A stretch of 1,068 bases of DNA, from the sequence record MN525560.1. One strand, given 5' to 3'. The translations under genes and the position numbers were made by a program. Below are positions 1 through 1,068 of the stretch, piece by piece; the stretch's first letter is position 1, and each line of letters starts with the position of its first letter. The notes beneath the pieces were generated by a model, which saw only the letters and a program-made list of their open reading frames with translations, searched no databases and was not told the origin of the DNA. Source of the stretch: a phage.

Positions 1-1068
1 ATGGAGAAAATTATTTTTACTAAAGATCTTGTTGCTAATTCTGCTGTTGTTGCTGATCAGTGGAAACATCTTACTATTGATCGTAAAGTTTTTTGCAATG
101 CTGAGGCTGAGCTTGCTAAAACTTATGGTGTTAATGCTACTGCTCTTGTTACTAAAGATTATTGGCGTGATGTTGATAATGTTACTACTCGTGTTTTTCG
201 TAATGAGGCTGGTCAGGATATGATGGCTGATCTTATGGGTATTGCTGCTAATATTAATATTGGTAAAACTGTTGCTATTTCTCGTATTGCTTCTGATGCT
301 GGTAAAGTTGTTCGTACTCTTTCTGGTCAGGAGCCTGAGGATCTTGATAAAACTCGTTATGATTATACTGGTGATGTTATTCCTATTTTTAAAACTGGTT
401 ATTCTCGTGAGTGGCGTGAGCTTCTTGGTATGCAGTCTGAGGGTTTTGATCCTCTTCTTGATGATCAGGCTAATGTTACTTTTAATCTTCGTTCTGATAT
501 GGCTCAGTATCTTCTTACTGGTGATCAGACTCTTAATGTTAATGGTGTTTATACTGGTTATGGTATTACTAATCATCCTAATACTATTCAGGTTAATCTT
601 AATGCTTCTGGTGGTCTTAATATTGATCTTCAGACTGCTACTCCTGATGAGATTGTTACTTTTTTTAATCAGGATTTTCAGGCTATTCTTGATGCTCAGA
701 ATGTTTTTGAGCAGGTTACTCTTTGGGTTTCTCCTGCTGTTCGTCGTTCTTTTATGCGTCCTTATTCTGATGCTGCTGGTTTTAAAGGTGGTACTGTTGA
801 GCAGTATATTACTCAGTTTGGTAATGGTCGTATTGGTAAAATTGGTACTAATTTTCTTCTTACTGGTAATCATTTTGTTGGTTATGTTCGTAATGATATG
901 TATATTCGTCCTCGTGTTGCTCAGCCTGTTTCTACTTATGCTGCTGCTCGTGCTAATCCTCATGATAATTTTAATTTTCTTGTTTGGTCTGCTTTTGGTC
1001 TTCAGATTCGTAAAGATGCTACTGGTAAATCTCGTGTTTTTAATGGTTATGGTACTCAGACTCCTGTT
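1..1068 (+). CDS. Uncharacterised protein, 356 codons in frame +1 with no stop in the window (3'-partial or stop-stripped); recoded with one codon per amino acid. No family assigned; weak, unverified impression of a soluble beta-rich structural (e.g. virion/capsid-like) protein.
   Basis: Seen directly: ATG at 1-3 and 356 consecutive sense codons with no TAA/TAG/TGA in frame 1 through nt 1068; strict period-3 structure with one codon per amino acid. Translation: MEKIIFTKDLVANSAVVADQWKHLTIDRKVFCNAEAELAKTYGVNATALVTKDYWRDVDNVTTRVFRNEAGQDMMADLMGIAANINIGKTVAISRIASDAGKVVRTLSGQEPEDLDKTRYDYTGDVIPIFKTGYSREWRELLGMQSEGFDPLLDDQANVTFNLRSDMAQYLLTGDQTLNVNGVYTGYGITNHPNTIQVNLNASGGLNIDLQTATPDEIVTFFNQDFQAILDAQNVFEQVTLWVSPAVRRSFMRPYSDAAGFKGGTVEQYITQFGNGRIGKIGTNFLLTGNHFVGYVRNDMYIRPRVAQPVSTYAAARANPHDNFNFLVWSAFGLQIRKDATGKSRVFNGYGTQTPV. 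The protein has diverse, non-repetitive composition, unlike the Leu-rich off-frame ORF. The true start cannot be confirmed because there is no upstream sequence, and the product is unassigned because no search could be run. Confidence 0.85.
   Translation, partial: MEKIIFTKDLVANSAVVADQWKHLTIDRKVFCNAEAELAKTYGVNATALVTKDYWRDVDNVTTRVFRNEAGQDMMADLMGIAANINIGKTVAISRIASDAGKVVRTLSGQEPEDLDKTRYDYTGDVIPIFKTGYSREWRELLGMQSEGFDPLLDDQANVTFNLRSDMAQYLLTGDQTLNVNGVYTGYGITNHPNTIQVNLNASGGLNIDLQTATPDEIVTFFNQDFQAILDAQNVFEQVTLWVSPAVRRSFMRPYSDAAGFKGGTVEQYITQFGNGRIGKIGTNFLLTGNHFVGYVRNDMYIRPRVAQPVSTYAAARANPHDNFNFLVWSAFGLQIRKDATGKSRVFNGYGTQTPV

Follow-up and report, generated by a model that had tools for sequence, protein, structure and literature searches.

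The window, by which we mean the whole 1068-nt stretch of DNA that was analysed, is filled from end to end by a single open reading frame. Its length is an exact multiple of three (3 x 356 codons), an ATG stands at positions 1-3, frame +1 contains 0 stop codons, and the final four codons (1057-1068) read CAG ACT CCT GTT (Q-T-P-V), with a sense codon in last place. The preliminary description of this stretch had given the same account of the ATG at nucleotide 1, the 356 codons and the unterminated 3' end, and each of these features is seen in the window. The chance of 356 stop-free codons, calculated on base composition alone, is about 9e-10, and frame +1 is therefore truly coding. The window holds neither a stop codon nor a ribosome-binding site (RBS) nor any flanking sequence. 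The preliminary description interpreted the missing terminator in two ways, either as a true C-terminus lying downstream of the window or as a full-length protein back-translated with its stop codon omitted, and it cautioned that the native start might lie elsewhere than at ATG-1. Only part of that interpretation stood. The results given below bear out the back-translation, and they contradict both the downstream C-terminus and the doubt over the start codon.

The protein encoded in frame +1 was identified by sequence search. In a tblastn search of 50,697 phage records, the coat protein of Escherichia phage C1 (AYR02276.1, ORF29; MH717097.1 / NC_054651.1, Deseoctovirus C1) agreed with it at 356/356 residues (100% identity), and so did that of phage S192 (ON239132.1). 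The C1 and S192 coat proteins begin and end at the same residues as the window protein. Approximately 158 further records from phages of Escherichia, Salmonella, Shigella and Klebsiella were at least 95% identical in the same search. The window protein matched the Pfam family DUF6260 (PF19774) with an E-value of 1.4e-112 and a score of 376.1 bits (cut-off 26.6) over profile positions 1-300 of 301, and it matched PHROG 771, 'virion structural protein', with an E-value of 4e-134 over profile positions 2-352 of 354. An NCBIfam search of the window protein gave no match. The Pfam family Major_capside (PF09950, DUF2184) fell below threshold (16.4 bits against 26.8), and the protein was not placed there. 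Homologues of about 50-53% identity were observed on bacterial contigs of up to 2.3 Mb from Gilliamella, Actinobacillus pleuropneumoniae and Rodentibacter. DUF6260 is named 'Family of unknown function' in Pfam, and many phage records label its members 'hypothetical' or 'virion structural protein'.

At the nucleotide level the agreement was far lower. The best DNA matches found by blastn in the 50,697 phage records reached about 79%, and the C1 coat gene itself reached 78.9%. Every amino acid of the window is written with one codon only, which gives exactly 20 different codons in all and 0 exceptions among the 343 codons for degenerate amino acids (356 codons in total). Alanine is written as GCT 31 times, valine as GTT 30 times, threonine as ACT 30 times, glycine as GGT 29 times and leucine as CTT 24 times, and codons ending in T make up 298 of the 356. 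Under uniform synonymous usage, such a one-codon-per-residue pattern has a log10 P of -165. The native C1 gene encodes the identical protein with 49 codons at 52.6% GC, against 20 codons at 36.5% GC in the window. Identity between the two sequences by codon position is 98.6%, 99.2% and 38.8%, respectively. Given the 100% identity of the proteins, the third-position figure of 38.8% indicates a back-translation of the phage C1 coat protein itself. We also considered whether the DNA might be a natural gene, extremely biased in its codons, from an unsampled T-rich phage genome. Nature does offer a phiX174-like preference for T-ending codons, but phiX174 itself uses several synonymous codons per degenerate amino acid, whereas the window makes no exception in 343. 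Moreover, the best DNA match of about 79% was obtained despite a 100% protein match in the 50,697 phage records, and a third-position identity of 39% beside an identical protein is not the pattern of natural divergence. We consider a natural origin of this coding next to impossible. Judged from its codon pattern, the window is almost certainly a computer-made back-translation of the complete 356-residue phage C1 major capsid protein, in which one fixed codon was used per amino acid and no stop codon was appended, and none of the observations speaks against this reading. A fixed-codon back-translation of this kind would yield a frame that opens at nucleotide 1, fills the window and runs off its 3' edge.

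The codon set of the window was compared with the preferences of six genomes, namely phiX174, M13, G4, T7, lambda and phage C1. In 17 of the 18 degenerate amino acids the window uses the codon that is most frequent in phiX174; for the eighteenth, cysteine, the two codons are equally common in phiX174 (13:13), which leaves 0 mismatches. The other genomes gave 3 (M13), 6 (G4), 8 (T7), 10 (lambda) and 11 (phage C1) mismatches. The back-translation table was therefore most likely derived from phiX174, which we offer as a well-supported guess since another T-rich genome could fit equally well. Artificial codons and an omitted stop would also fit a deliberately designed synthetic gene, such as an expression or fusion construct left open for a C-terminal tag. 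However, the uniform use of CTT, GCT, GTT, ACT, TCT and CCT is not what one would choose for expression in E. coli, and the codon set departs from the preferences of lambda, T7 and phage C1 at 8-11 amino acids. The window also shows no cloning sites, linker or tag, and its single-codon scheme produces the heavy low-complexity repetition that gene designers avoid. A designed construct is thus very unlikely, and were it true, the protein would still be complete and the conclusion unchanged.

The back-translation also accounts for two further open frames in the window. Read in register on the - strand (1..1068), the window shows 0 stops over its full length, because reverse-complementing the 20 codons never yields a stop codon. 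In frame +2, a leucine-rich 'ORF' of 64 amino acids extends over positions 29-223 of the + strand, and the single stop of that frame is a TGA at 221; frame +2 is nearly open because only an ATG followed by an A-initial codon can produce a stop there. The native C1 gene has 2 stops in the antisense in-register frame and 14 in frame +2. Both the antisense frame and the 64-residue frame are by-products of the codon set and not genes. The same table, and not biology, is the source of the codon bias, the T-richness, the GC and AT skew, the absent stop codon and RBS, and the short exact repeats of the window. Nucleotide-level findings made on the window should be discounted, since that table produced them. 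The missing stop codon is likewise an artefact of data construction, and nothing novel attaches to it. The importance of the artificial coding is one of quality control only, as the window carries the information of the protein and nothing else.

The termini of the protein were assessed at the natural locus of phage C1 (coordinates prefixed L001) and among homologues. The preliminary description had recommended a search for the first in-frame stop downstream, a search for an RBS or an alternative start upstream, and a comparison of length with homologues, and these tests indicate a complete protein. The native C1 coat gene occupies L001 6001-7071, and its 3' end reads ...ACT CCG GTG TAA TAA (L001 7060-7074), which places a double TAA immediately after the codon for V356. 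At the other end, the C1 locus annotates the ATG at L001 6001 as the start, and this corresponds to ATG-1 of the window (1..3, + strand). A GGAG motif lies at L001 5990-5993 with a 7-nt spacer to the ATG, and the stop codon of the preceding decoration-protein gene lies at L001 5996-5998, 2 nt before the ATG. No ATG, GTG or TTG occurs in the 18 in-frame codons of the C1 locus between ATG-1 and the nearest upstream stop, 19 codons away. The phage C1 coat gene thus differs from the window in its TAA TAA, its RBS, its downstream hairpin and its 49 codons.

Comparison with 120 homologues, down to 37% identity, gave a concordant picture. Their commonest length is 356 amino acids, their N-terminal offsets are mostly within 3 residues of ATG-1, and 115 of the 120 end between -6 and +4 residues of V356. 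Of the five outliers, three are fragments, and two are distant proteins with 47 and 64 additional residues. In an alignment of 36 sequences, the column of V356 is also the last one for close relatives (...GTQTPV or ...GTQTAL), and more distant sequences stop 3-5 residues before it. The gene of the orthologue in Shigella phage Sf11 closes with ...ACT CCG CAG TAA TAA. Mass spectrometry of mature Sf11 virions covers residues 40-356 of this orthologue, gp39 (PMC12724387), and coverage up to residue 356 supplies direct experimental evidence for a C-terminus at the position where the window ends. Codons 355-356 (CCT GTT, P-V; 1063..1068, + strand) therefore encode the true C-terminus, with the stop left unwritten, as both the native gene and the ends of the homologues indicate.

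These observations also decide whether the window might be a natural gene fragment, that is, a truncated ORF whose real C-terminus, and perhaps start, lies outside. The bare lack of a stop codon and of flanks is the whole of what speaks for a fragment. Against it stand the TAA TAA directly after V356 in the natural gene of an identical protein, the homologue ends between -6 and +4 in 115 of 120 cases (the two longer proteins being only 42-46% identical), the length of 356 amino acids in Sf11 gp39, and a single-codon usage that is not seen in natural genes (the native gene employs 49 codons). A truncated fragment is hence scarcely credible. The protein is complete, running from its native start at ATG-1 to its native last residue, V356, and the window as a whole (1..1068, + strand) represents the complete coding sequence, minus its stop, of a 356-residue HK97-fold major capsid protein in artificial codons. 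The 20-codon usage, the identity to C1, the DUF6260 and PHROG 771 matches and the match to PDB 9OCB described below all bear on this description.

In the natural genomes, a hairpin follows the capsid gene. An 8-bp stem with the arrangement AAAGGGGC-GAAA-GCCCCTTT lies 3' of the double TAA of phage C1 (L001 7078-7097, + strand), with a folding energy of -14.4 kcal/mol and a z score of -4.1, and 0 of 200 shuffled sequences were as stable. The Sf11 genome (coordinates prefixed L007) carries the same 8-bp stem after its capsid gene at L007 26590-26609 (- strand), closed by a UUCG loop and with an energy of -14.1 kcal/mol. GAAA and UUCG are both known as unusually stable tetraloop types. A strict terminator scan of the + strand did not call the hairpin, as its tail, TTTATGAA, has a short T-run, and the T-run criterion of the scan was satisfied on the - strand only. 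The element after the capsid gene is a stable, conserved hairpin with a putative terminator role. Placed after a highly expressed capsid gene, it probably acts as a leaky terminator or stabilises the RNA.

Structural comparison placed the protein among the HK97-fold capsid proteins. In the PDB, it matched chain A of 9OCB with an E-value of 2.7e-232 and about 96% identity; this entry, from Shigella phage Sf11, is titled 'Major capsid protein gp39' and has a length of 356 amino acids. An AlphaFold2 model built from the 36-sequence alignment had a mean pLDDT of 81.6. When this model was searched with Foldseek, 358 matches were obtained at E<=0.001. The 9ocb chains ranked first (E 2.7e-53, TM 0.83-0.88 on target) and 5wk1_A, from phage TW1, ranked second (E 4.8e-23, TM 0.80); encapsulins and other capsids with the HK97 fold came next. 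The capsid shell domain comprises residues 45-348 (133..1044, + strand), the extent of the DUF6260 match in Pfam, and the AlphaFold2 model and the Foldseek matches support its HK97 fold. On both family profile and fold, the protein belongs to the HK97-fold major capsid proteins of the Sf11/TW1 type (DUF6260, PHROG 771). Phage major capsid proteins of this type are already known and have been structurally characterised.

The two characterised relatives differ in their distance from the window protein. Sf11 gp39, from a Cedarrivervirus siphophage, shares the length of 356 amino acids and about 96% of its residues, and its gene resembles that of C1 in having a decoration gene directly upstream and a TAA TAA followed by the hairpin; it differs by 14 substitutions, and its last residue is Q in place of the V of C1. 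[quoted passage not shown] In the Sf11 capsid, 415 copies of gp39 form a T=7 shell, and gp40, a trimeric beta-tulip decoration protein that most resembles that of TW1 (5WK1), occupies all threefold sites (PMC12724387). The major capsid protein of the marine siphophage TW1 (PDB 5WK1, 352 aa) shares the family (E 1.5e-25 over residues 37-346) and the fold, and it too is paired with a beta-tulip capsid-stabilising protein. However, it is only about 26% identical over the structural alignment and its host is Pseudoalteromonas. The role as main shell protein of the virion is experimental for the Sf11 orthologue and for TW1 (5WK1), and by homology to these the C1 protein would serve the same role.

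The capsid gene sits in a phage head-morphogenesis module, which is seen in the natural C1 locus and not in the window. Directly upstream of the C1 capsid gene lies the decoration-protein gene (PHROG 766; PDB 9ocb_H, E 7e-98), and Sf11 has the same order of decoration gene followed by capsid gene. Two genes upstream of the C1 capsid gene is ORF31 (L001 4119-5531, + strand), an uncharacterised protein of 470 amino acids assigned to PHROG 760 (unknown function). Its Sf11 counterpart is gp41, also of 470 amino acids (L007 28155-29567, - strand), upstream of the decoration and capsid genes. The head module of lambda is ordered C protease / Nu3 scaffold, D decoration, E major capsid. The C1 sequence of a 470-residue protein, decoration protein and capsid protein resembles this order, as does the trimeric decoration protein at threefold sites. 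The C1 capsid protein differs from lambda gpE in belonging to another Pfam family, and no sequence similarity was detected between the two. In the position of lambda C/Nu3, the 470-residue ORF31 is a candidate scaffold or protease.

ORF31 showed sub-threshold matches to a head-maturation-protease PHROG (E 8e-4) and to Pfam DUF2213 (E 0.038), on which no functional assignment was based, and its C-terminus is coiled-coil-like. A search of ORF31 against PDB sequences gave no match. Because the Sf11 paper tabulates a portal of 470 residues, ORF31 was also considered as the portal protein; it was rejected, as it lacks a PDB sequence match while Sf11 gp63 is the 9YIN portal. The protein annotated in GenBank as Sf11 gp63 (DUF1073, 470 aa; L007 38197-39609, - strand) is identical to the solved portal PDB 9YIN. 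In Table 1 of the Sf11 paper, the 470-residue portal appears as 'gp42' (PMC12724387). In the GenBank record gp42 is an ORF of 48 amino acids, and gp41 shares the portal's length of 470 amino acids. The portal is thus 'gp42' in the paper and gp63 in GenBank, so that the numbering of genes differs in part between the two sources.

The N-terminal arm, residues 1-45 (1..135, + strand), stands apart from the shell domain. It lies outside the Pfam domain, it is predicted to be helical (the AlphaFold2 model has helices at residues 8-42), and it is absent from the Sf11 map, in which residues 46-355 of gp39 were modelled (PMC12724387). Residues 22-44 (window 64-132, + strand) account for 8 of the 14 differences from Sf11 gp39, and the shell domain is almost invariant. 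The Sf11 authors infer an N-terminal cleavage of gp39 (PMC12724387), and maturation of the C1 protein probably involves the loss of its first ~39 residues. More tentatively, residues 1 to ~39-45 may constitute a cleavable assembly arm, a mini delta domain, that is removed by an unrecognised prohead protease for which C1 ORF31 / Sf11 gp41 is a candidate. We think it possible, if somewhat doubtful, that this full scheme is correct. The cleavable-arm reading is suggested by the helical character of the arm in the model, by its absence from both the Sf11 map and the virion peptides, and by its holding 8 of the 14 differences. ORF31 is put forward as the protease because it occupies the place of lambda C/Nu3, has a coiled-coil-like C-terminus and gives sub-threshold matches to DUF2213 and a protease PHROG.

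For phage C1, the coat protein encoded by the window would follow the usual course for tailed-phage heads: it would assemble into a procapsid, probably lose its N-terminal ~39 residues and then expand. By close homology to Sf11 gp39, the C1 head would be a T=7 icosahedral shell of 415 copies, cemented by the trimeric decoration protein that is encoded directly upstream in the natural genome. The artificial coding of the window and the identity, completeness, family and fold of the protein are shown by the present analysis, and we infer both the T=7 geometry and the cleavage of the N-terminal arm in C1 from the 96%-identical Sf11 orthologue. For the family as a whole, what is missing for DUF6260 is an up-to-date name and not biological knowledge, as the 5WK1 and 9OCB structures show an HK97-fold major capsid protein. 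This capsid family appears to be present in prophages of the Orbaceae and Pasteurellaceae, besides coliphages and the phages of Salmonella and Klebsiella.
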